Positions 2,324-53,055 of a stretch of 64,000 nt of DNA are shown here, piece after piece (the first letter of the stretch is position 1; every line of letters begins with the position of its first letter). The stretch lies in NCBI RefSeq assembly GCF_013122565.1, contig NZ_CP053258.1, one strand, 5' to 3'. Below the pieces are notes generated by a model. That model ran no database searches. It was given only the letters and a program-made list of their open reading frames with translations, and was not told the DNA's origin. The stretch is from Escherichia coli. Lineage in GTDB: Bacteria; Pseudomonadota; Gammaproteobacteria; Enterobacterales; Enterobacteriaceae. A program made the position numbers and the translations under genes.

Positions 2324-3613
2324 ATGAGCACCGCTTTGCTTGACGCCGTGGTGAAGAAAAACCGTGCGCGTTTAATTCCGTTTATGTTGGCGCTGTATGT
2401 GCTGGCGTTTCTCGACCGTTCGAATATTGGTTTTGCCAAACAGACCTACCAGATTGATACCGGGCTGAGTAATGAAGCTTATGCGCTGGGAGCAGGCATT
2501 TTCTTTGTGGTATACGCGTTTCTGGGGGTTCCGGCGAATCTTTTGATGCGAAAACTGGGGGCCAGAACCTGGATTGGTACGACAACACTGCTGTGGGGAT
2601 TTCTTTCGGCAGCCATGGCATGGGCCGATACTGAAGCGAAATTTCTGATTGTTCGCACTCTGCTTGGTGCTGCGGAGGCTGGGTTTTTCCCTGGTATGAT
2701 TTATCTCACCTCGCAATGGTTTCCGCAGAGTAATCGCGCCAGCATTATGGGGCTGTTCTATATGGGCGCACCGCTGGCGTTAACACTGGGATCACCGCTT
2801 TCTGGCGCGCTGCTGGAGATGCATGGATTTATGGGGCATCCCGGCTGGTTCTGGATGTTTGTGATTGAAGGATTGTTGGCAGTCGGCGCTGGGGTATTCA
2901 CATTCTTTTGGCTTGATGACACACCGGAGCAGGCACGTTTTCTGAGTAAACAAGAAAAAAAGTTGCTTATCAATCAACTGGCAAGTGAAGAACAACAGAA
3001 AGTGACTTCCCGAATGAGCGATGCGCTGCGTAATGGGCGAGTCTGGCAACTGGCGATTATCTACCTGACCATTCAGGTGGCGGTTTACGGATTAATTTTC
3101 TTCTTGCCGACCCAGGTTGCTGCATTGCTGGGGACAAAAGTGGGCTTTACGGCGTCGGTGGTCACCGCCATTCCGTGGGTTGCTGCCTTATTTGGGACCT
3201 GGCTTATTCCGCGCTATTCCGATAAAACCGGCGAACGGCGTAATGTCGCAGCGCTGACATTACTGGCGGCGGGCATTGGTATTGGTCTGTCCGGGCTGCT
3301 TTCTCCAGTAATGGCGATCGTAGCGCTGTGTGTTGCAGCCATCGGGTTTATTGCCGTGCAGCCGGTGTTCTGGACGATGCCGACACAACTGCTTTCCGGT
3401 ACGGCGCTGGCTGCGGGGATTGGTTTTGTAAACCTGTTTGGTGCAGTGGGCGGGTTTATTGCCCCGATCCTGCGCGTGAAAGCAGAAACGTTATTTGCCA
3501 GCGATGCGGCGGGATTACTGACGCTGGCAGCGGTGGCGGTCATCGGTTCGCTGATTATTTTCACTCTGCGTGTATATCGTACTGTTGCGCAGACCGATGT
3601 GGCACATCATTAA
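2324..3613 (+). CDS. rhmT: MFS transporter, probable L-rhamnonate importer
   Basis: Polytopic MFS-like protein; ORF track starts at GTG 2285, but ATG 2324 has a strong AAGGAG SD 7 nt upstream, giving 429 aa. Confidence 0.85.
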
Positions 3614-3630
3614 ATAGGTTAAGGAACACG

Positions 3631-4434
3631 ATGAACGCATTATTAACCAATCCCTTTAAAGAACGTTTACGCAAGGGCGAAGTGCAAATTGGTCTGTGGT
3701 TAAGCTCAACAACTGCCTATATGGCAGAAATTGCCGCCACTTCCGGTTATGACTGGTTGCTGATTGACGGGGAGCACGCGCCAAACACCATTCAGGATCT
3801 TTATCACCAGCTACAGGCGGTAGCGCCCTATGCCAGCCAACCCGTGATCCGTCCGGTGGAAGGCAGTAAACCGCTGATTAAACAAGTCCTGGATATTGGC
3901 GCGCAAACTCTACTGATCCCGATGGTCGATACTGCCGATCAGGCACGTCAGGTGGTGTCTGCCACGCGCTATCCTCCCTACGGTGAGCGTGGTGTCGGGG
4001 CCAGTGTGGCACGGGCTGCGCGCTGGGGACGCATTGAGAATTACATGGCGCAAGTTAACGATTCACTTTGTCTGTTGGTGCAGGTGGAAAGTAAAACGGC
4101 ACTGGATAACCTGGACGAAATCCTCGACGTCGAAGGGATTGATGGCGTGTTTATTGGACCTGCGGATCTTTCTGCGTCGTTGGGCTACCCGGATAACGCC
4201 GGGCACCCGGAAGTGCAGCGAATTATTGAAACCAGTATTCGGCGGATCCGTGCTGCGGGTAAAGCGGCTGGTTTTCTGGCTGTGGCTCCTGATATGGCGC
4301 AGCAATGCCTGGCGTGGGGAGCGAACTTTGTCGCTGTTGGCGTTGACACGATGCTCTACAGCAATGCCCTGGATCAACGACTGGCGATGTTTAAATCAGG
4401 CAAAAATGGGCCACGCATAAAAGGTAGTTATTGA
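3631..4434 (+). CDS. rhmA: 2-keto-3-deoxy-L-rhamnonate aldolase (HpcH/HpaI family)
   Basis: 267-aa protein from ATG 3631 (SD AAGGAA upstream); the ORF-track entry 3328..4434 is an artefactual N-terminal extension overlapping rhmT. Confidence 0.85.
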
Positions 4435-23000: not shown

Positions 23001-23830
23001 AGCGACGCGATCACGCTGGTGGCGATGGTCAGACGCTGAATTTACGTGTTATCGGCGGAGATTATCATTACACAGCAGCGGGGCAACTGGCTCAGCATGA
23101 AGACACTTCTACAGTGCAGCTTAGCGGCGACCTGTTTAGCGGGCGCTGGGGGGATAATGGCGAGTGGATGCTTGGGGCGGTTGGTGGCTACAGTGATAAT
23201 CAGGGCGACAGCCGCTCGAATCTGACCGGAACTCGCGCCGATAACCAGAACCACGGTTATGCCGTTGGGCTGACCTCAAGCTGGTTTCAGCACGGTAAGC
23301 AGAAGCAGGGGGCCTGGCTGGATAGCTGGCTGCAATACGCGTGGTTTAGCAACGATGTTTCCGAACAAGACGATGGCGCGGATCATTACCATTCGTCGGG
23401 AATTATTGCTTCTCTGGAAGCGGGGTATCAGTGGTTACCGGGGCATGGTGTGGTGATTGAACCGCAGGCGCAGGTGATTTATCAGGGCGTGCAACAGGAT
23501 GATTTTACCGCCGCTAACCATGCGCGCGTGTCACAATCGCAGGGTGATGATATTCAAACGCGGCTGGGTTTACACAGCGAATGGCGTACCGCTGTTCATG
23601 TCATACCAACATTAGATCTGAATTATTATCACGATCCGCATTTGGCAGAAATTGAAGAAGATGGCAGCACTATCAGTGACGATGCGGTGAAGCAACGGGG
23701 TGAAATAAAAGTGGGAGTCACGGGCAATATCAGTCAGCGAGTCTCGCTGCGCGGCAGCGTGGCGTGGCAGAAAGGGAGTGATGATTTTGCCCAGACGGCA
23801 GGGTTTTTATCGATGACGGTGAAATGGTAA
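20078..23830 (+). CDS. yfaL: AIDA-I-type autotransporter adhesin
   Basis: 1250 aa; N-terminal signal; repetitive Gly/Asn/Thr-rich passenger; Pro-rich PDPDPTPDP linker; C-terminal beta-barrel domain. Confidence 0.85.
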   Translation: MRVIFLRKEYLSLLPSMIASLFSANGIAAVTDSCQGYDIKASCQASRQSLSGITQDWSIADGQWLVFSDMTNNASGGAVFLQQGAKFTLSPENETGMTLFANNTVTGEYNNGGAIFAKENSTLNLTDVIFSGNVAGGYGGAIYSSGTNDTGAVDLSVTNAMFRNNIANDGKGGAIYTINNDVYLSDVIFDNNQAYTSTSYSDGDGGAIDVTDNNSDSKHPSGYTIINNTAFTNNTAEGYGGAIYTNSATAPYLIDISVDDSYSQNGGVLVDENNSAAGYGEGPSTAAGGFMYLGLSEVTFDIADGKTLVIGNTENDGAVDSIAGTGLITKTGSGDLVLNADNNDFTGEMQIENGEVILGRSNSLMNVGDSHCQDDPQHCYGLTIGSIDKYQNQAELNVGSTQQTFVHSLTGFQNGTLNIDAGGNVTVNQGSFAGTIEGAGQLTIAQNGSYVLAGAQSMALTGDIVVDDGAVLSLEGDAADLAALQDDPQSIVLNGGVLDLSDFSTWQSGTSYNDGLEVSGSSGTVIGSQDVVDLAGGNDMHIGGDGKDGVYVVVDAGDGQVSLANDNQYLGTTQIASGTLMVSDNTQLGDTHYNRQVIFTDNQQESVMEITANVDTRSTTAEHGRDIEMRADGEVAVDAGVDTQWGALMADSSRQHQDEGSTLTKTGAGTLELTASGTTQSAVRVEEGSLKGDVADIFPYASSLWVGDGATFVTGADQDIQSIDATSSGTIDISDGTVLRLTGQDTSVALNASLFNGDGTLVNITDGVTLTGELNTNLETDSLTYLADVTVNGDLTNTSGAVSLQNGVVGDTLTVNGDYTGGGTLLLDSELNGDDSASDQLVLNGNTAGNTTVVINPITGIGEPTSTGIKVVDFAADPTQFQNNAQFSLAGSGYVNMGAYDYTLVEDNNDWYLRSQEVTPPSPPDPDPTPDPDPSPDPDPTPDPAPTPAYKPVLNAKVGGYFNNLRAANQAFMMERRDHAGGDGQTLNLRVIGGDYHYTAAGQLAQHEDTSTVQLSGDLFSGRWGDNGEWMLGAVGGYSDNQGDSRSNLTGTRADNQNHGYAVGLTSSWFQHGKQKQGAWLDSWLQYAWFSNDVSEQDDGADHYHSSGIIASLEAGYQWLPGHGVVIEPQAQVIYQGVQQDDFTAANHARVSQSQGDDIQTRLGLHSEWRTAVHVIPTLDLNYYHDPHLAEIEEDGSTISDDAVKQRGEIKVGVTGNISQRVSLRGSVAWQKGSDDFAQTAGFLSMTVKW

Positions 23831-23853
23831 TCGCATCTCACCAGGCATCACTG

Positions 23854-23935
23854 CCGGATGCGGCGTAAACGCCTTATCTGGCCTACGGAGAGCATTTGTA
23901 GGCCTGATAAGACGCGGCAAGCGTCGCATCAGGCA
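23854..23935. repeat. BIME: two inverted REP units between yfaL and ubiG
   Basis: gccggatgcggcgtaaacgccttatctggcctac and gtaggcctgataagacgcggcaagcgtcgcatcaggc. Confidence 0.7.
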
Positions 23936-23957
23936 TTGGCGCGGCCAAACATCAACC

Positions 23958-37151: not shown

Positions 37152-40001
37152 TTGAAATACCTTGCTTCTTTTCGTACAACCCTGAAAGCCTCGCGCTACA
37201 TGTTCAGAGCATTGGCGTTAGTGCTCTGGCTGTTGATTGCTTTTTCATCCGTTTTTTACATCGTTAATGCGTTACATCAGCGAGAATCGGAAATTCGTCA
37301 GGAATTTAATCTGAGTTCCGATCAGGCTCAGCGCTTTATTCAACGCACCTCTGATGTGATGAAAGAGCTGAAGTACATCGCTGAAAATCGCTTATCGGTA
37401 GAAAACGGTGTGCTTTCCCCGCGTGGACGAGAAACGCAGGCAGATGTGCCTGCGTTTGAACCGCTGTTTGCCGACTCCGATTGTTCCGCAATGAGTAACA
37501 CCTGGCGAGGTTCTCTGGAGTCATTGGCGTGGTTTATGCGCTACTGGCGCGATAATTTTTCTGCGGCTTACGATCTCAACCGGGTATTTTTAATCGGCAG
37601 CGATAACCTCTGCATGGCCAATTTCGGTCTGCGTGATATGCCAGTGGAACGCGATACCGCGTTGAAAGCTTTGCATGAACGCATCAATAAATATCGAAAT
37701 GCACCACAAGATGATAGCGGCAGTAACCTCTACTGGATCAGCGAAGGTCCGCGCCCTGGCGTCGGGTATTTTTACGCGTTGACGCCAGTTTATCTGGCGA
37801 ACCGGTTGCAGGCGCTTTTGGGTGTCGAGCAAACCATCCGGATGGAGAACTTTTTCTTACCGGGTACGTTGCCGATGGGGGTTACCATTCTTGATGAAAA
37901 TGGTCATACCCTGATTTCGCTTACCGGACCAGAAAGCAAAATTAAGGGCGATCCTCGCTGGATGCAGGAACGCTCCTGGTTTGGCTATACGGAAGGGTTC
38001 CGGGAGCTGGTGCTGAAGAAAAATCTGCCACCCTCATCGCTAAGCATCGTGTATTCGGTGCCGGTTGATAAGGTGCTGGAACGCATTCGCATGTTGATCC
38101 TTAACGCAATTTTGCTGAATGTGCTTGCCGGAGCTGCATTGTTTACTCTCGCGCGGATGTACGAGCGACGTATTTTCATTCCGGCGGAAAGCGACGCCCT
38201 GCGACTGGAAGAACATGAGCAGTTCAATCGCAAGATTGTCGCCTCCGCGCCAGTGGGTATCTGCATTTTGCGTACCGCTGATGGCGTCAATATTTTAAGT
38301 AACGAACTGGCGCATACCTATCTCAATATGCTTACGCATGAGGACCGCCAACGACTGACGCAAATTATCTGTGGGCAGCAGGTCAATTTTGTTGATGTCC
38401 TGACCAGCAACAATACCAATCTGCAAATCAGCTTCGTCCATTCGCGCTATCGTAATGAAAACGTGGCCATTTGTGTGCTGGTGGATGTTTCTTCGCGCGT
38501 GAAGATGGAAGAGTCGTTGCAGGAGATGGCACAAGCAGCGGAACAGGCGAGCCAGTCAAAATCGATGTTCCTTGCCACCGTCAGTCATGAGCTGCGAACG
38601 CCGCTGTATGGCATTATCGGTAACCTGGATCTTTTGCAAACCAAAGAGTTACCGAAAGGCGTCGATCGTCTGGTGACGGCAATGAACAACTCTTCCAGCC
38701 TGTTGTTGAAAATTATCAGCGATATTCTCGATTTCTCGAAGATTGAATCGGAACAGTTGAAGATCGAACCGCGTGAGTTTTCACCGCGTGAAGTGATGAA
38801 CCACATCACCGCCAACTATTTACCGCTGGTGGTACGCAAGCAGTTAGGCTTGTACTGCTTTATTGAACCGGATGTGCCAGTGGCCTTAAATGGCGACCCG
38901 ATGCGTTTACAGCAGGTCATCTCCAACCTGTTGAGTAACGCCATAAAATTCACCGATACCGGCTGTATAGTTTTGCATGTCCGCGCTGATGGCGATTATC
39001 TCTCTATCCGTGTTCGCGATACCGGCGTGGGGATCCCGGCGAAAGAAGTGGTGCGCTTGTTTGATCCCTTCTTCCAGGTCGGAACGGGCGTACAGCGAAA
39101 CTTCCAGGGGACCGGTCTGGGTCTGGCGATTTGTGAAAAACTGATCAGCATGATGGACGGCGACATCTCGGTAGATTCAGAACCGGGAATGGGCAGCCAG
39201 TTTACCGTGCGTATTCCGTTGTACGGCGCTCAGTACCCGCAGAAAAAAGGCGTGGAAGGGTTGAGTGGTAAACGCTGCTGGCTGGCGGTCCGCAATGCGT
39301 CACTCTGTCAGTTCCTGGAAACCAGTTTGCAGCGCAGCGGCATCGTCGTAACAACATACGAAGGGCAGGAACCGACTCCCGAAGATGTGTTAATCACTGA
39401 CGAGGTAGTGAGTAAAAAATGGCAGGGCAGAGCGGTAGTGACCTTCTGTCGTCGACATATTGGTATTCCGCTGGAGAAAGCGCCAGGGGAGTGGGTACAC
39501 AGTGTGGCTGCTCCGCATGAGCTACCGGCATTGTTGGCGCGTATTTATTTGATCGAGATGGAGAGCGACGATCCTGCTAACGCTCTGCCGTCGACGGACA
39601 AAGCGGTCAGCGATAATGACGATATGATGTTTCTGGTCGTGGATGATCATCCGATTAACCGACGTCTGCTGGCAGATCAGTTGGGATCGTTGGGCTATCA
39701 ATGTAAAACCGCGAATGATGGCGTCGATGCGCTTAATGTACTTAGCAAGAATCATATTGATATCGTGCTTAGCGACGTCAACATGCCAAATATGGATGGT
39801 TACCGCTTGACGCAACGCATTCGTCAGTTGGGACTGACGTTGCCGGTAATCGGAGTAACTGCTAATGCGTTGGCTGAAGAGAAGCAGCGGTGTCTGGAGT
39901 CCGGTATGGACAGCTGCCTGTCGAAGCCGGTAACGCTGGATGTGATAAAACAGACGCTGACGGTATATGCCGAGAGGGTCAGGAAATCGCGGGAATCGTA
40001 G
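37152..40001 (+). CDS. rcsC: Rcs phosphorelay hybrid sensor histidine kinase
   Basis: 949 aa; HisKA H-box (SHELRTPL), HATPase and C-terminal receiver domain; apparent TTG start. Confidence 0.92.
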   Translation: MKYLASFRTTLKASRYMFRALALVLWLLIAFSSVFYIVNALHQRESEIRQEFNLSSDQAQRFIQRTSDVMKELKYIAENRLSVENGVLSPRGRETQADVPAFEPLFADSDCSAMSNTWRGSLESLAWFMRYWRDNFSAAYDLNRVFLIGSDNLCMANFGLRDMPVERDTALKALHERINKYRNAPQDDSGSNLYWISEGPRPGVGYFYALTPVYLANRLQALLGVEQTIRMENFFLPGTLPMGVTILDENGHTLISLTGPESKIKGDPRWMQERSWFGYTEGFRELVLKKNLPPSSLSIVYSVPVDKVLERIRMLILNAILLNVLAGAALFTLARMYERRIFIPAESDALRLEEHEQFNRKIVASAPVGICILRTADGVNILSNELAHTYLNMLTHEDRQRLTQIICGQQVNFVDVLTSNNTNLQISFVHSRYRNENVAICVLVDVSSRVKMEESLQEMAQAAEQASQSKSMFLATVSHELRTPLYGIIGNLDLLQTKELPKGVDRLVTAMNNSSSLLLKIISDILDFSKIESEQLKIEPREFSPREVMNHITANYLPLVVRKQLGLYCFIEPDVPVALNGDPMRLQQVISNLLSNAIKFTDTGCIVLHVRADGDYLSIRVRDTGVGIPAKEVVRLFDPFFQVGTGVQRNFQGTGLGLAICEKLISMMDGDISVDSEPGMGSQFTVRIPLYGAQYPQKKGVEGLSGKRCWLAVRNASLCQFLETSLQRSGIVVTTYEGQEPTPEDVLITDEVVSKKWQGRAVVTFCRRHIGIPLEKAPGEWVHSVAAPHELPALLARIYLIEMESDDPANALPSTDKAVSDNDDMMFLVVDDHPINRRLLADQLGSLGYQCKTANDGVDALNVLSKNHIDIVLSDVNMPNMDGYRLTQRIRQLGLTLPVIGVTANALAEEKQRCLESGMDSCLSKPVTLDVIKQTLTVYAERVRKSRES

Positions 40002-40200
40002 GACGGATAAGGTGTTTATGCCGCATCTGGCATTCAGTGCAAATGCCAGATGCGACGCTGACGCGTCTTATCTGGCCTACTTTAATGTAATCTGTTGAAA
40101 TAATGGGAATCGTAGGACGGATAAGGCGTTTACGCCGCATCCGGCAATCGGTGCAAATGCCAGATAAGACACTAACTAGTCTTATCTGGCCTACATCTGG
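39991..40200. repeat. Tandem duplication (period 114 bp) of a REP-containing unit
   Basis: gggaatcgtaggacggataagg occurs at 39991 and 40105, each followed by REP palindromes; the first copy includes the last 11 nt of rcsC. Confidence 0.7.
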
Positions 40201-43863: not shown

Positions 43864-43956
43864 AAAAAAAACCGGATGCGAGGCATCCGGTTGAAATAGG
43901 GGTAAACAGACATTCAGAAATGAATGACGGTAATAAATAAAGTTAATGATGATAGC
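43864..43956 (-). ncRNA. micF: MicF antisense sRNA
   Basis: Minus strand reads gctatcatcattaactttatttattaccgtcattcatttctgaatgtctgtttacccc...aaccggatgcctcgcatccggtttttttt, the MicF sequence with its terminator hairpin, divergent from ompC. Confidence 0.85.
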
Positions 43957-44111
43957 GGGAGTTATTCTAGTTGCGAGTGAAGGTTTTGTTTTGACATTCA
44001 GTGCTGTCAAATACTTAAGAATAAGTTATTGATTTTAACCTTGAATTATTATTGCTTGATGTTAGGTGCTTATTTCGCCATTCCACAATAATCTTAAAAA
44101 GTTCCCTTGAA

Positions 44112-44171
44112 TTTACATTTTGAAACATCTATAGCGATAAATGAAACATCTTAAAAGTTTTAGTATCATAT
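44112..44171 (+). promoter_or_regulatory. OmpR-binding region (C1-C3) of the ompC promoter
   Basis: tttacattttgaaacatcta / tagcgataaatgaaacatct / taaaagttttagtatcatat, matching the ompC upstream repeats as I recall. Confidence 0.65.
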
Positions 44172-44275
44172 TCGTGTTGGATTATTCTGCATTTTTGGGG
44201 AGAATGGACTTGCCGACTGATTAATGAGGGTTAATCAGTATGCAGTGGCATAAAAAAGCAAATAAAGGCATATAA

Positions 44276-45394
<1,119 letters not shown>

Positions 45395-45412
45395 TCTCGA
45401 TTGATATCGAAC

Positions 45413-45436
45413 AAAGGGCCTGCGGGCCCTTTTTTC
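45413..45436 (+). terminator. Rho-independent terminator of ompC
   Basis: aaagggcc-tgcg-ggcccttttttt. Confidence 0.8.
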
Positions 45437-45505
45437 ATTGTTTTCAGCGTACAAACACAGTTTTTTGGTGTACTCTTGCGACCGTTCGCATGAGGATAAT
45501 CACGT

Positions 45506-46561
45506 ATGGAAATAAGCTTTACCCGCGTGGCACTGCTGGCTGCCGCGCTCTTCTTTGTTGGTTGCGATCAAAAACCACAACCCGCCAAAACCCACGCTAC
45601 TGAAGTTACCGTTCTTGAAGGCAAAACTATGGGTACCTTCTGGCGTGCCAGCATCCCGGGCATTGACGCCAAACGCAGCGCCGAACTTAAAGAAAAGATT
45701 CAGACCCAGCTGGACGCCGACGATCAGCTGCTTTCGACCTATAAAAAAGATTCCGCGCTGATGCGCTTTAACGACTCGCAAAGTTTGTCGCCGTGGCCGG
45801 TAAGTGAAGCGATGGCCGATATCGTCACCACCTCGCTGCGCATTGGCGCAAGGACCGATGGTGCGATGGATATAACCGTCGGGCCGCTGGTGAATCTGTG
45901 GGGCTTTGGCCCGGAACAACAGCCGGTTCAAATTCCGAGCCAGGAACAGATCGATGCGATGAAAGCCAAAACTGGTTTACAGCACCTGACGGTCATTAAT
46001 CAGTCGCATCAGCAATATCTGCAAAAAGACCTACCGGATTTATATGTCGATCTCTCCACCGTCGGTGAAGGTTATGCGGCGGATCACCTGGCACGCTTGA
46101 TGGAGCAGGAAGGAATTTCACGTTATCTGGTGTCAGTTGGTGGTGCTCTGGATAGCCGTGGTATGAACGGTGAAGGCCAGCCGTGGCGGGTAGCGATTCA
46201 AAAACCAACCGATAAAGAAAACGCGGTTCAGGCTGTGGTGGATATCAACGGTCATGGGATTAGCACCTCTGGCAGCTACCGTAACTATTACGAACTGGAC
46301 GGCAAACGTCTTTCCCATGTTATCGATCCGCAAACCGGGCGTCCCATCGAACACAATCTGGTATCCGTGACGGTGATTGCTCCGACGGCGCTGGAAGCCG
46401 ATGCCTGGGATACTGGCTTGATGGTACTCGGGCCGGAGAAAGCCAAAGAGGTTGTTCGCCGGGAAGGGCTGGCGGTTTATATGATCACCAAAGAAGGTGA
46501 TAGCTTTAAAACCTGGATGTCACCACAGTTTAAAAGCTTCCTGGTCAGCGAAAAAAATTAA
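45506..46561 (+). CDS. apbE: FAD:protein FMN transferase (lipoprotein)
   Basis: 351 aa; lipobox FFVGC near N-terminus. Confidence 0.9.
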   Translation: MEISFTRVALLAAALFFVGCDQKPQPAKTHATEVTVLEGKTMGTFWRASIPGIDAKRSAELKEKIQTQLDADDQLLSTYKKDSALMRFNDSQSLSPWPVSEAMADIVTTSLRIGARTDGAMDITVGPLVNLWGFGPEQQPVQIPSQEQIDAMKAKTGLQHLTVINQSHQQYLQKDLPDLYVDLSTVGEGYAADHLARLMEQEGISRYLVSVGGALDSRGMNGEGQPWRVAIQKPTDKENAVQAVVDINGHGISTSGSYRNYYELDGKRLSHVIDPQTGRPIEHNLVSVTVIAPTALEADAWDTGLMVLGPEKAKEVVRREGLAVYMITKEGDSFKTWMSPQFKSFLVSEKN

Positions 46562-46568
46562 TGCGCAA
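46551..46568 (+). promoter_or_regulatory. Ada-box-like element of the ada promoter
   Basis: aaaaaaattaatgcgcaa (AAAT...GCAA) about 70 bp upstream of ada, overlapping the apbE stop. Confidence 0.5.
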
Positions 46569-46634
46569 GATTGTTGGTTTTTGCGTGATGGTGACCGGGC
46601 AGACTAAAGGCTATCCTTAACCAGGGAGCTGATT

Positions 46635-47699
46635 ATGAAAAACGCCACATGCTTAACTGACGATCAACGCTGGCAATCTGTCTTAGCCCGCGACCCGAAT
46701 GCCGACGGCGAATTCGTTTTCGCCGTGCGCACCACGGGTATCTTTTGCCGTCCGTCTTGCCGCGCCAGACATGCCTTGCGGGAAAACGTCTCCTTCTACG
46801 CAAATGCCAGCGAGGCACTCGCCGCTGGCTTTCGCCCCTGCAAACGTTGTCAGCCAGACAAAGCCAATCCCCGGCAACATCGCCTTGATAAAATTACCCA
46901 CGCCTGCCGACTTCTGGAACAGGAAACGCATGTAACGCTGGAAACCTTAGCCGACCAGGTGGCGATGAGCCCGTTCCATCTGCATCGGTTGTTTAAAGCG
47001 ACTACCGGAATGACGCCTAAAGCCTGGCAACAGGCCTGGCGCGCTCGCCGTTTGCGCGAATCGCTGGCGAAAGGGGAGAGCGTGACGACGTCTATTCTTA
47101 ACGCCGGATTCCCCGACATCAGCAGTTACTACCGCAAAGCTGACGAAACGCTGGGCATGACGGCTAAACAATTCCGTCACGGTGGCGAAAATCTGGCGGT
47201 GCGTTACGCGCTGGCTGATTGTGAGCTGGGTCGTTGCCTGGTGGCAGAAAGCGAGCGGGGGATTTGCGCGATATTGCTGGGCGATGATGACGCGACATTA
47301 ATCAGCGAGTTGCAGCAGATGTTTCCCGCTGCCGACAGCGCGCCTGCCGATCTGACGTTTCAGCAACATGTGCGTGACGTGATCGCCAGCCTCAATCAAC
47401 GCGATACGCCGCTGACGTTACCGCTGGACATTCGCGGCACTGCTTTTCAGCAACAAGTCTGGCAGGCACTGCGCACGATACCTTGCGGTGAAACCGTCAG
47501 TTATCAGCAACTGGCGAACGCCATCGGCAAACCGAAAGCGGTACGGGCCGTTGCCAGCGCCTGTGCCGCCAACAAGCTGGCTATCGTAATACCCTGTCAT
47601 CGAGTGGTCCGTGGTGATGGCACTCTTTCTGGTTACCGCTGGGGCGTGTCGCGTAAAGCACAACTGCTGCGCCGCGAAGCTGAAAATGAGGAGAGGTAA
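46635..47699 (+). CDS. ada: Bifunctional transcriptional activator / O6-methylguanine-DNA methyltransferase
   Basis: 354 aa; N-terminal Cys cluster (FCRPSCRAR), AraC-type HTH, C-terminal PCHRV active site. Confidence 0.95.
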   Translation: MKNATCLTDDQRWQSVLARDPNADGEFVFAVRTTGIFCRPSCRARHALRENVSFYANASEALAAGFRPCKRCQPDKANPRQHRLDKITHACRLLEQETHVTLETLADQVAMSPFHLHRLFKATTGMTPKAWQQAWRARRLRESLAKGESVTTSILNAGFPDISSYYRKADETLGMTAKQFRHGGENLAVRYALADCELGRCLVAESERGICAILLGDDDATLISELQQMFPAADSAPADLTFQQHVRDVIASLNQRDTPLTLPLDIRGTAFQQQVWQALRTIPCGETVSYQQLANAIGKPKAVRAVASACAANKLAIVIPCHRVVRGDGTLSGYRWGVSRKAQLLRREAENEER

Positions 47700-48349
47700 T
47701 GTTGGATCTGTTTGCCGATGCTGAACCGTGGCAAGAGCCTCTGGCGGCTGGTGCGGTAATTTTACGGCGTTTTGCTTTTAACGCTGCGGAGCAACTAATC
47801 CGCGATATTAATGACGTTGCCAGCCAGTCGCCGTTTCGCCAGATGGTCACTCCAGGCGGATATACCATGTCGGTGGCGATGACCAACTGCGGGCATCTGG
47901 GCTGGACGACCCATCGGCAAGGTTATCTCTATTCGCCCATTGATCCGCAAACAAATAAACCGTGGCCCGCCATGCCACAAAGCTTTCATGATTTATGCCA
48001 ACGTGCGGCTACGGCGGCGGGCTATCCAGATTTCCAGCCAGATGCTTGTCTTATCAACCGCTACGCTCCTGGCGCGAAACTGTCGCTGCATCAGGATAAA
48101 GACGAACCGGATCTGCGCGCGCCAATTGTTTCTGTTTCTCTGGGCTTACCCGCGATTTTTCAATTTGGCGGCCTGAAACGAAATGATCCGCTAAAAAGAT
48201 TGTTGTTGGAACATGGCGATGTGGTGGTATGGGGCGGTGAATCGCGGCTGTTTTATCACGGCATTCAACCGCTGAAAGCGGGGTTTCATCCACTCACCGG
48301 CGACTGCCGCTACAACCTGACATTCCGGCAGGCAGGTAAAAAAGAATAA
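47699..48349 (+). CDS. alkB: Fe(II)/2-oxoglutarate-dependent DNA/RNA demethylase
   Basis: 216 aa; HxD...H motif (HQDKDE); start overlaps ada stop by 1 nt. Confidence 0.95.
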   Translation: MLDLFADAEPWQEPLAAGAVILRRFAFNAAEQLIRDINDVASQSPFRQMVTPGGYTMSVAMTNCGHLGWTTHRQGYLYSPIDPQTNKPWPAMPQSFHDLCQRAATAAGYPDFQPDACLINRYAPGAKLSLHQDKDEPDLRAPIVSVSLGLPAIFQFGGLKRNDPLKRLLLEHGDVVVWGGESRLFYHGIQPLKAGFHPLTGDCRYNLTFRQAGKKE

Positions 48350-48424
48350 AAATAAGAATTATTATTGCTGTGCGCGCGAAGATGTTTAAACTGCGGGCTG
48401 TAATTCATTGTCCGGGTTTTCTGC

Positions 48425-50068
48425 ATGGAACTTCTTGTACTTGTCTGGCGGCAGTATCGCTGGCCATTTATCAGTGTGATGGCGCTAAGCCTCGCCAGTG
48501 CGGCTTTAGGCATTGGCTTAATTGCTTTTATCAATCAGCGCCTTATCGAAACGGCGGATACCAGTCTGCTGGTGTTGCCGGAGTTTCTGGGATTATTGCT
48601 GCTGTTGATGGCCGTCACTCTCGGATCGCAACTGGCGCTCACCACTTTGGGGCATCACTTCGTTTACCGACTGCGTAGTGAATTTATCAAGCGGATTCTG
48701 GATACCCACGTCGAACGCATTGAACAACTCGGTAGCGCCTCGTTGTTGGCGGGGTTAACCAGCGATGTGCGCAATATCACCATTGCTTTTGTGCGTCTGC
48801 CGGAACTGGTGCAGGGGATCATTCTCACTATCGGTTCCGCGGCGTATCTGTGGATGCTGTCGGGCAAAATGTTGCTGGTAACGGCTATCTGGATGGCGAT
48901 CACCATCTGGGGTGGTTTTGTACTGGTGGCGCGGGTGTACAAACATATGGCGACCCTGCGTGAAACCGAAGACAAGCTGTACACGGATTTTCAAACCGTA
49001 CTCGAAGGGCGCAAAGAGCTGACTCTGAACCGGGAACGCGCCGAGTATGTGTTTAACAACCTCTACATTCCTGATGCGCAAGAGTATCGCCATCATATTA
49101 TCCGCGCAGACACCTTCCATCTTAGTGCCGTGAACTGGTCAAACATCATGATGCTGGGCGCTATCGGCCTGGTGTTCTGGATGGCGAACAGTCTCGGTTG
49201 GGCTGATACCAACGTTGCTGCGACCTATTCGTTGACGCTGTTATTCCTGCGTACGCCGCTGCTTTCGGCGGTTGGCGCATTGCCGACGCTGCTGACGGCG
49301 CAGGTGGCGTTTAACAAGCTGAACAAATTCGCGCTCGCGCCTTTCAAAGCGGAATTTCCGCGTCCGCAGGCGTTTCCCAACTGGCAAACACTGGAATTGC
49401 GTAACGTGACGTTTAGCTATCAGGATAACGCGTTTTCCGTTGGGCCGATTAACCTCACCATCAAACGTGGCGAACTGCTGTTTCTGATTGGCGGCAACGG
49501 TAGCGGAAAATCGACGCTGGCGATGTTGTTGACGGGCTTGTATCAGCCGCAAAGCGGCGAAATCTTGCTGGATGGCAAACCTGTCAGCGGCGAACAACCG
49601 GAAGATTATCGCAAATTGTTTTCGGCAGTGTTTACCGATGTCTGGCTGTTTGATCAACTGCTGGGGCCGGAGGGGCAACCCGCTAACCCGCAACTGGTTG
49701 AGAAGTGGCTGGCGCAGCTGAAAATGGCTCATAAGCTTGAGTTAAGTAACGGGCGTATTGTTAACCTGAAGTTATCGAAAGGGCAGAAAAAACGCGTGGC
49801 GCTGTTGCTGGCGCTGGCAGAAGAACGCGATATTATCCTGCTGGATGAATGGGCGGCGGATCAGGACCCACACTTCCGTCGTGAGTTTTATCAGGTGTTG
49901 CTGCCGCTGATGCAGGAGATGGGTAAAACTATTTTCGCCATCAGTCATGATGATCATTACTTTATCCACGCCGACCGCCTGCTGGAAATGCGCAACGGGC
50001 AACTTAGCGAGCTGACGGGCGAAGAGCGCGATGCCGCTTCGCGTGATGCCGTTGCCCGGACGGCATAA
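48425..50068 (+). CDS. yojI: ABC exporter, fused TMD-NBD (microcin J25 efflux type)
   Basis: 547 aa; N-terminal TM domain; Walker [10 protein letters not shown]. Confidence 0.9.
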
Positions 50069-50273: not shown

Positions 50274-51932
<1,659 letters not shown>

Positions 51933-51938
51933 TGATGT

Positions 51939-51969
51939 GCCACATCCGGCATGGTATGCCGGATGTGGC
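51939..51969 (+). other. 14-bp perfect-stem hairpin immediately 3' of mqo
   Basis: gccacatccggcat-ggt-atgccggatgtggc. Confidence 0.6.
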
Positions 51970-51974
51970 GTATG

Positions 51975-52313
51975 CTGATAAGACGCGCCAGCGTCGCATC
52001 AGGCAACCGGCTTGGGTGTTAGATGTCGGATGCGGCGTAACCGACTTATTCGACCTACGGGGTGGAGCACTTCACAGCGGTGTAGGCCTGATAAGACGCG
52101 TCAGCGTCGCATCAGGCAACCGGCTCGGACGTTGGATGTCGGATGCGGCGTAACCGCCTTATCCGACCTACGGGGTGGAGCACTTCACAGCGGTGTAGGC
52201 CTGATAACACGCGTCAGCGTCGCATCAGGCAACCGGCTCGGGCGTTAGATGTCGGATGCGGCGTGACCGCTTTATCCAACCTACGGGGTGCCGCACTTCA
52301 CGGCAGTTTAGCG
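51975..52313. repeat. BIME array: three tandem ~113-bp REP-containing units
   Basis: Units start at 51975, 52088 and 52201; the third overlaps the eco stop codon. Confidence 0.8.
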
Positions 52314-52796
52314 AACTACTGCGTTGTCAATTTTCTCTTCCGCCTTCCAGACGCGGTACTTCACATCCACATTGTCTGGCGTATACACCACGATCGGCAG
52401 CTTGCTGTTGTAACGCAGCATTCCGGCATCGCCCAGATACGCGGTGACAAATTTCCTCTCTTTCTTGCCATCCGGGCAGGCCATCATCGTGGAAACCGGC
52501 GAGCTACCTTTATCAAAGACATAATAATCATAGCCCCAGCCTTCCAGCGTTTTGCTTTCCAGCTTCCCGCCGAGACGATGCAAATTACAATCGACTTCCA
52601 GCGTCTGACCGATTAACAGTTCTACTTTCAGGGTAGATTCATCTTCTTGCGGGGTTAACTGAATCACCTGACGCTTCATGCCTTTTTCAGCTTGTGGATA
52701 AGGCGCGATTTTTTCCAGTGGCTGGACGCTCTCTGCCGCCCAGGCGGAAGTGGTGGCGAAAGCGGCAAACAATACTGCAGGTAGAATGGTCTTCAT
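52308..52796 (-). CDS. eco: Ecotin, periplasmic serine-protease inhibitor
   Basis: 162 aa from ATG 52796 ([20 protein letters not shown] signal peptide). Confidence 0.92.
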
Positions 52797-53055
52797 TTTT
52801 TTGCTTTCCTTCTTCATTTATAGGTTTTCACCGATGATGTCGCTGAAGGTTAACATATTCATCAGATTTATTAATTTGCTTTATGAATAACTTAAAGAAT
52901 ATTCAGACAATTTTACCTGCTCTTTTAGTGTTAAATTCTGATGAGAGAACAAACCAGCAGAAATATCTCTGGTGAATTAATCGCTATATAAATATGTTTA
53001 TAACCATTAGAAATGTGAGCAAAAGCCCGTTTTTGCCACGCTTCCCGCCACTCTT

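Follow-up and report, generated by a model that had tools for sequence, protein, structure and literature searches.

The genes for malate:quinone oxidoreductase (mqo) and ecotin (eco) converge on a 375-bp gap, measured from stop codon to stop codon, in the Escherichia coli DNA considered here, and an array of tandem repeats lies entirely within that gap. What is this repeated DNA, is it already known, and does it serve the two genes on either side of it? The window, by which we mean the whole stretch of DNA that was analyzed, comprises 64,000 nucleotides of one strand of contig NZ_CP053258.1. An earlier note on the window had read the gap as tandem, REP-containing units of a kind that varies in copy number between strains, and this reading is supported by the observations described below. 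The three-unit array is real, and it is an allele of a BIME-2 element that has already been annotated and studied experimentally. We put at close to nine in ten the probability that the full account is right, namely that this is the three-unit allele of the known E. coli BIME-2 array of the eco/mqo gap, the REP161 element of K-12, working in the manner that we propose. The account builds on direct observation of the anatomy of the array, the identity of its REPs, its copy-number variation, its conservation and its folding energies. The features of the locus are the following.

50286-51932, plus strand: coding sequence of mqo, from the open reading frame (ORF) list; the name comes from the RefSeq annotation of matching E. 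coli loci.
51939-51969, both strands: REP-derived hairpin with a perfect 14-bp stem and a 3-nt loop, from an inverted-repeat search.
51970-52005, minus strand: unit 1 Z2 REP (inverted), 35/37 identical to canonical Z2.
52006-52023: unit 1 head-to-head linker, 18 nt, natural-register reading.
52024-52058, plus strand: unit 1 Y-type REP, 30/35 identical to canonical Y.
52059-52081: unit 1 tail-to-tail linker, 23 nt, locus-specific.
52082-52118, minus strand: unit 2 Z2 REP (inverted), foot GTAGGCC intact, 35/37 identical to canonical Z2.
52119-52136: unit 2 head-to-head linker, 18 nt, natural-register reading.
52137-52171, plus strand: unit 2 Y-type REP, 32/35 identical to canonical Y, fold -20.2 kcal/mol.
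52172-52194: unit 2 tail-to-tail linker, 23 nt, natural-register reading.
52195-52231, minus strand: unit 3 Z2 REP (inverted), 34/37 identical to canonical Z2.
52232-52249: unit 3 head-to-head linker, 18 nt, natural-register reading.
52250-52284, plus strand: unit 3 Y-type REP, more degenerate than the other two Y copies, 29/35 identical to canonical Y, fold -15.1 kcal/mol.
52285-52307: flank on the eco side, 23 nt, with homology to the tail-to-tail linkers, natural-register reading.
52308-52817, minus strand: coding sequence of eco, from the ORF list; the name comes from the RefSeq annotation of matching E. coli loci.

According to the ORF list, mqo ends with a TAA at 51930-51932, and the TAA stop of eco is the complement of 52308-52310. 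Between them, Tandem Repeats Finder reports an array at 51975-52301 with a period of 113, 2.9 copies, 92% matches, no indels and a score of 563, and a repeat search gives the in-register 113-nt copies 51975-52087, 52088-52200 and 52201-52313, which are 100, 94 and 86% identical to the first copy. The units that the earlier note had placed at 51975, 52088 and 52201 are thus recovered by both programs, and every coordinate that it gave proved to be correct. The self-comparison that it had proposed as a check also bears it out: at a lag of 113, identity over 51933-52307 is 0.824, as compared with a maximum of 0.371 among 500 shuffles, and so the 113-bp periodicity is far beyond chance.

Whether the third unit runs across the eco stop codon, as the note had claimed, depends on where one starts counting. 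It does so in the register beginning at 51975. It does not in what we call the natural register, in which the REP foot GTAGGCC is placed first and unit 3 ends at 52307. Tandem Repeats Finder closes the array at 52301, short of the stop codon, and of the 13 positions in 52301-52313, 8 agree with the internal junction (p about 0.006-0.02), which is weak support for an overlap. In the natural register, the TTAGCG that follows 52307 aligns with the GTAGGC of the foot of an absent fourth REP, the TTA that is the complement of the eco stop lying opposite the GTA of the missing GTAGGCC. In this alignment, the eco stop codon sits on a vestigial REP foot.

The inverted-repeat search finds two imperfect palindromes in each unit, and these match the canonical Z2 and Y REPs (we used the sequences quoted in Durrant 2024 as references), so the two REP-like palindromes per unit that had been noticed earlier are indeed REPs. 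A unit consists, in order, of an inverted Z2 REP of 37 nt (GTAGGCCTGATAAGACGCGTCAGCGTCGCATCAGGCA), a head-to-head linker of 18 nt, a Y-type REP of 35 nt (TGTCGGATGCGGCGTAACCGCCTTATCCGACCTAC) and a tail-to-tail linker of 23 nt (GGGGTGGAGCACTTCACAGCGGT). The Z REPs are Z2 rather than Z1 in that they include the extra GACGCTGRCGCGTC core. All three Y copies carry a paired change, GTCGGA...TCCGAC in place of the canonical GCCGGA...TCCGGC. A pattern for REP heads has 24 matches in the window where 4.8 are expected, and all six REPs and both arms of the hairpin are among them. Two traits are required by the REP-associated transposase, TnpA-REP (Ton-Hoang 2012): the GTAG/CTAC foot, which is present in five of the six REPs, and an internal GC/TT stem mismatch (GATGCG opposite CTTATC), which is present in all six. 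The exception among the feet is the first Z2, where GTAGGCC has degenerated to GTATG-C; the clade strains L024 and L009 still have GTAGGCC at this place. The intact foot of the unit 2 Z2 includes a natural target of IS621, GTAGGCCTGAT, which begins at 52082.

Folded as RNA, the individual REP stems reach -15 to -21 kcal/mol; the Z2 of unit 2 is at -21.4 kcal/mol (z -6.5), and the Z2 of unit 3 has a single stem-breaking change (AAGACGC to AACACGC, a C/C at alignment pair 16/29). The gap as a whole folds at -181.7 and -163.3 kcal/mol on the two strands, with z about -5 against shuffles.

To which class of element does the array belong? Its REPs run Z2(-) Y(+) Z2(-) Y(+) Z2(-) Y(+), and BIME-2 elements have been defined as alternating inverted Y and Z2 REPs in tandem copies with linkers that vary in length and sequence (Ton-Hoang 2012). 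The alternating orientation and the tandem copies therefore make this a BIME-2, which is also how the K-12 allele at eco/mqo is classed by Sutormin 2019. The head-to-head linker, at 18 nt, does not look like the textbook S motif and compares with 11-12 nt in two other BIME-2 elements that we examined; tail-to-tail linkers are 11-31 nt in other such elements examined, a range that includes the 23 nt found here. The closest relative is REP161 itself, which has the same locus, flanks, hairpin, 113-bp unit, REP types and linkers. REP161 differs in having six units, so that the distance from stop to stop inclusive is 719 bp rather than the 381 bp of the three-unit window, and in a few substitutions per unit.

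Three other identities for the array can be weighed against this anatomy. Each unit might encode a small nucleoid-associated RNA like naRNA4, which would bind HU and condense the chromosome, since the Rfam model RF02564 matches all three units on the minus strand; the match in unit 2, at 52085-52168 and made of its Z2 and Y REPs, scores 75.3 against a gathering score of 59.5, and units 3 and 1 fall under that threshold at 56.2 and 49.1. REP325, the yjdM/yjdN element that gives rise to naRNA4, a processed HU-binding RNA of about 77 nt whose role is disputed, has the same tandem architecture of Z2 and Y REPs in inverted alternation and is recognized by the same model. However, the model also matches unrelated BIMEs of the window. 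Two of these matches, 40001-40077 and 40115-40191, exceed the gathering score, and three overlapping ones in the region 23818-23946 fall below it. This implies that the model detects REP pairs generally rather than a specific RNA gene, and we dropped naRNA4 as a specific identification. REP325 also has a period of 100 bp instead of 113, linkers of 12 nt (head-to-head) and 17 nt (tail-to-tail) that are unrelated in sequence, the canonical Y REP instead of the GTCGGA/TCCGAC variant, and a position between tandem rather than convergent genes. Moreover, REP325/naRNA4 causes no measurable compaction of the nucleoid and acts as a local 3'UTR element (Harris 2026, a preprint). We consider a small RNA gene in each unit very unlikely.

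Even less probable is an IHF-binding BIME-1 element of the RIB/RIP type. Some BIMEs are associated with IHF in a general way, and BIME-1 elements also place inverted REPs in 3' intergenic regions, but they consist of Z1 and Y REPs with a long L linker carrying the IHF site and occur as single copies (Ton-Hoang 2012). None of this is true of the eco/mqo array, where the REPs are of the long Z2 form, the units are in tandem and a search with the IHF consensus, allowing up to one mismatch, gave no match in 51933-52307. IHF binding, which the earlier note had listed among the possible roles of such arrays, is a trait of the other class and is not supported here. We would give almost no credence to the idea that the repeats encode a repetitive protein. 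The mechanical ORF list does contain plus-strand frames at 51932-52153, 52012-52248 and 52143-52616 that would encode 73-157 amino acids; however, such frames are expected by chance in a G+C-rich repeat with few stop codons, the longest runs antisense through eco, the variable unit number and single-base indels described below would break any frame, and the region is intergenic in every RefSeq genome that we inspected. The RRS elements, 222-bp repeats reported by Pham 2024, had been considered on account of their size and map region, and they are located near dusC/lysO instead.

The BIME-2 assignment brings with it the expectation that copy number varies among strains, as the earlier note had supposed, and it does: E. 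coli genomes have from one to at least eight units at this locus. For example, strain U1 has one unit, strain 33F4 has three, a K-12-like strain has six and strain HH194M has eight, and the two ends of the array are identical in these alleles. We took a census with a query made of the flanks only and read the span in 60 evenly spaced genomes out of 5,426 complete E. coli genomes. One unit was found in 38 of them, three units in 3, four in 2, five in 3 and six in 11, and the remaining 3 gave split matches; of the two split matches that were inspected, one represents eight units and the other four units with an IS621 insertion. The single-unit allele would thus be the allele of about 63% of complete E. 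coli genomes. A 35-mer that spans the junction between units is present at 99% identity or better in 1968 of the 5426 genomes, which agrees with this figure. The 35-mer occurs at up to 11 places per genome, and alleles of about 12 units possibly occur. In K-12 it is found at 5 places, which are its 5 internal junctions, and this implies that the linker is specific to the eco/mqo locus. The flanks in the window are at most 98.5% identical to those of any of the 5,426 genomes.

The larger alleles also indicate how the array may change in size. In K-12 and HH194M, two unit subtypes alternate to give a super-period of 226 bp, as unequal recombination or slippage in register would produce, and we propose that the number of units changes by such recombination or by slippage during replication. 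Unit 1 of K-12 is 112 nt long, and single-base indels distinguish alleles. Polymorphism in BIME copy number has already been described; the distribution reported here, with mostly one unit and a second mode at five to six units, is not in the sources that we consulted.

The hairpin beside mqo, treated in the earlier note as a mere preface to the array, is the part of the locus for which transcript evidence is most direct, and that evidence comes from K-12. Its perfect 14-bp stem was correctly described: the arms, 51939-51952 and 51956-51969, are 100% complementary and leave a 3-nt loop. In RNA of the plus strand, two G.U pairs extend the stem to 18 bp (51935-51973), so that it begins 2 nt past the mqo stop codon. 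It folds at -29.2 kcal/mol (z -6.1) on the plus strand, which is the sense of mqo, and at -27.8 kcal/mol (z -6.6) on the minus strand, which is the sense of eco. Of 5426 E. coli genomes, 5417 contain the hairpin with its flanks, each of them a single time. The hairpin falls outside the textbook definition of an intrinsic terminator: the stem is present, but there is no U-tract or T-run beside it on either strand, and a scan of 51700-52900 for consensus promoters and terminators found none.

It does, however, appear among bidirectional terminators. Table 16 of Harris 2026 lists such terminators between convergent genes, reusing an earlier published map, and the core sequence of its entry 365 is that of the hairpin in the window. 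The entry (eco:mqo, REP161, Convergent) gives a 46-nt overlap, a dG of -33.4 kcal/mol and an 18-3-18 hairpin, and it counts two A and two U in flanks of 8 nt. Both convergent transcripts cover the overlap, and this has two consequences. The mqo mRNA would end just past the hairpin, and the eco transcripts would traverse the whole array, which would make it the 3'UTR of eco and not of mqo. Like known bidirectional intrinsic terminators, then, this is a single strong hairpin common to both transcripts; unlike them, the Escherichia hairpin has neither an A- nor a U-tract, and its arms are REP-head sequence. REPs less than 16 nt from a stop codon have been reported to reduce translation. By distance alone, the mqo hairpin falls within this limit and the first true REP after eco, at 23 nt from the stop, does not. 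On the eco mRNA, the 23-nt flank ahead of that REP folds weakly into a hairpin of 6 bp, beginning 2 nt past the stop codon (-8.5 kcal/mol, z -2.0).

Both arms of the hairpin resemble the head of a Y REP, matching the REP-head pattern as mentioned above. E. whittamii has an intact Y REP whose head is the right arm of the hairpin, and in L024 and L009 this arm adjoins an intact GTAGGCC. From these comparisons, the E. coli hairpin would seem to be a Y REP head base-paired to a complementary copy upstream, the remnant of a deletion between two GGCGTA repeats.

Gyrase, the other protein that had been suggested to act on such arrays, has been seen at work on the K-12 allele. The element has figured in studies of gyrase cleavage since 1997, and table DS3 of Sutormin 2019 lists it as a BIMEs2 of 654 bp, eco>-<mqo, with 11 cleavage sites under ciprofloxacin, 7 under rifampicin plus ciprofloxacin, 2 under microcin B17 and 5 under oxolinic acid; the row is annotated "Espeli, Boccard 1997: 6 cuts". 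In the same study, gyrase cut Y REPs much more often than Z2, and the signal at BIME-2 elements rose when transcription was blocked. The earlier suggestion of gyrase sites has thus been borne out for K-12. Both the cleavage and the bidirectional 3' ends have been established in the literature for the six-unit K-12 allele, and the three-unit allele, which has the same parts, presumably shares them.

Taken together, these results would suggest the following working. REP DNA, chiefly of the Y type, would be a preferred site for gyrase to bind and cleave, and the array would be a site where supercoils are processed as transcription units converge on it from both sides. The 3' end of both transcripts would be set by the hairpin beside the mqo stop codon, the mqo mRNA ending about 40 nt past its stop codon and the eco mRNA carrying the full array as a 3'UTR of roughly 375 nt. 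REP325, which has six units in K-12 and is transcribed as a 3'UTR, serves as a partly Rho-dependent terminator and a stabilizer of mRNA (Harris 2026). By analogy, the REP stem-loops in the eco 3'UTR should block 3'-to-5' exonucleases and would partly attenuate read-through, so that stabilization or attenuation of the eco mRNA, two roles that the earlier note had mentioned for such arrays, is probable here. The same preprint reports higher expression for convergent gene pairs that have a REP in between, and finds that mRNA half-life across the genome is no different for genes with terminal REPs; from the latter it follows that a stabilizing effect on eco is not assured.

The same gap in other bacteria displays some informative patterns. 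The convergent arrangement of eco and mqo is kept across the Enterobacteriaceae. In Klebsiella and in Enterobacter soli, the gap is 37-66 bp long and holds a classic bidirectional terminator (A-run, hairpin, T-run). One or two REPs of their own kind occupy the gap in Citrobacter species, and in a further enterobacterium (L058) it holds a tandem array of 312 bp made of REPs from a different family. Among the Escherichia loci examined, all that still have the mqo side carry an array of Y-variant and Z2 REPs, with about 7 units in E. albertii, about 2.5 in E. whittamii and 3 each in L008 and L024; in L009, an IS has taken the place of mqo and one unit is kept. Across the Escherichia species, the REP cores are conserved far better than the linkers. 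This distribution, with the array Escherichia-wide and plain terminators or unrelated REPs in other genera, is also absent from the sources that we consulted.

The comparison has some bearing on the origin of the array. The 23-nt tail-to-tail linker is homologous to the 3' flank of eco right up to the stop codon, and that flank is kept at the eco end of the array in every Escherichia locus examined. The founding duplication may have captured this piece of host flank, through breakage at a C|T position (GC|TAAAC) resembling the CC|TAC cut by the REP-associated transposase. We set aside the short linker of L008 as proof of such a capture, since by alignment it is equally a deletion derivative of the long linker. 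The homology between linker and flank does not appear in the sources consulted, and its bearing on origin is offered as a hypothesis only.

Is the array kept because it is useful? Covariation gives no support for selection on structure, because the stems are almost invariant: in 27 units from nine Escherichia genomes, 98.3% of stem positions are paired, and the one double change observed was reached by the shuffle control in 120 of 500 runs. A G.T at alignment pair 67/82 is unchanged in all 27 units. Stem substitutions that are compatible with G.U pairing are more numerous when read on the plus strand (18 cells) than on the minus strand (4 cells), or about 11 versus 3 independent events; this asymmetry is weak and possibly reflects mutational bias.

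Two opposite views of the selective value can be taken. In one, the repeats are selfish or neutral DNA: REPs colonized a permissive convergent gap and were multiplied by unequal recombination, and any effects on gyrase or RNA are incidental. The extra units are clearly dispensable, because about 63% of E. coli genomes have one unit, and the drift of copy number from one to at least eight fits this view. So do the other genera, which manage with a short gap and a plain terminator, the independent colonization of the gap by different REP families in Citrobacter and L058, the empty covariation test, and the use of the array as a landing site by IS621. On the other hand, REP cores that are far better conserved than linkers, a hairpin that is found in nearly every E. 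coli genome, and a K-12 allele that ranks with the BIME-2 elements that gyrase cleaves most heavily count against it. We give the neutral view somewhat less than even odds; it is about selective value and not mechanism, and so it is compatible with our main explanation. In the opposite view, the number of units would be a heritable dial for how long and how structured the eco 3'UTR is and for the number of gyrase sites between the two converging genes, and the skewed distribution of alleles would come from the tuning of ecotin expression or of local supercoiling in particular lineages rather than from drift. This we consider unlikely.

In conclusion, the mqo/eco gap of the window is better annotated as a BIME-2 array with a bidirectional terminator hairpin than as small ORFs or an naRNA gene. 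E. coli provides at this one locus a natural allelic series of one to at least eight units, which is usable for studying the effects of BIME-2 dosage on a 3'UTR and on local supercoiling.

Among the inner units of the longer eco/mqo arrays, two kinds occur in turn: one reads GGCTTGGGCGTTAG...TCCGACC, the other GGCTCGGACGTTGG...TCCAACC. This pattern is present in the six-unit, K-12-like allele (L001, 1118-1836) and in the eight-unit allele of strain HH194M (L005, 301-1250), and it gives both arrays a higher-order period of 226 bp. The alternation and its period suggest that the array would grow in two-unit steps.

The REP stems themselves were compared in an alignment of 27 units from the window and the eco/mqo loci L001-L003, L005, L007, L008, L010 and L024. 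The Y stems are far more variable than the Z2 stems; three of 12 pairs never vary in the former and nine of 12 in the latter. Most of the stem substitutions preserve G.U pairing in the + strand (mqo-sense) RNA, with 18 such cells for this strand versus four for the eco-sense RNA, many cells being of shared ancestry. Because of that shared ancestry, the strand skew may reflect a mutational bias.

The gap is interrupted at two loci. IS621, an insertion sequence with a bridge-RNA recombinase, lies within the array of one genome, E. coli 2017-02-2CC (L006, 1476-3250), where it is inserted between units 3 and 4 at GTAG|GCC of a Z2 foot. The published natural target of IS621 is ATCAGGCCTAC, which reads GTAGGCCTGAT on the + strand. 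In Escherichia sp. MOD1-EC7003 (L009, ~3504-4400) the gap is broken on the mqo side; transposase-like sequence takes the place of mqo and abuts the hairpin, the left arm of the hairpin is altered, and one array unit is left, beside eco. The window has three copies of the IS621 target, one of them outside the array, as well as other BIMEs and an antisense RNA:

52082 and 52195, + strand reading: IS621 natural target, in the array
23898: third copy of the IS621 natural target, outside the array
23850-23937: single canonical BIME-2 pair (Y REP, 11-nt tail-to-tail linker, inverted Z2 REP)
39998-40165: second BIME, with Y and Z2 REPs
43864-43957, - strand: MicF antisense RNA (Rfam RF00033, 116.8 bits)

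The single BIME-2 pair served as an internal reference for canonical REP sequence. In the second BIME the head-to-head linkers measure 11 nt, and the tail-to-tail linker, at 31 nt, holds an IHF consensus match with one mismatch (TTTCAACAGATTA, 40088-40100). Two Rfam naRNA4 matches above the gathering score also fall in this BIME (40001-40077 and 40115-40191). MicF adjoins ompC, as expected.

Among 5,426 complete RefSeq E. coli genomes, the best identity is 97.7% over the 6 kb at 44000-50000 and 98.5% for the mqo/eco flanks (51630-52610). The window therefore belongs to an Escherichia coli-like lineage, somewhat divergent and unrepresented among those genomes.

Beyond Escherichia, different REP families have colonised the convergent eco/mqo gap independently. 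L058 has a 312-bp tandem array (3489-3801) with units of ~100 bp built on GTAGCCCGGGCGAGGCG, and Citrobacter species have one or two REPs of their own type. Klebsiella and Enterobacter soli retain a plain bidirectional intrinsic terminator. This comparison covers loci L058, L011-L019, L033 and L045. The eco/mqo gap looks like a recurrent landing site for REPs.
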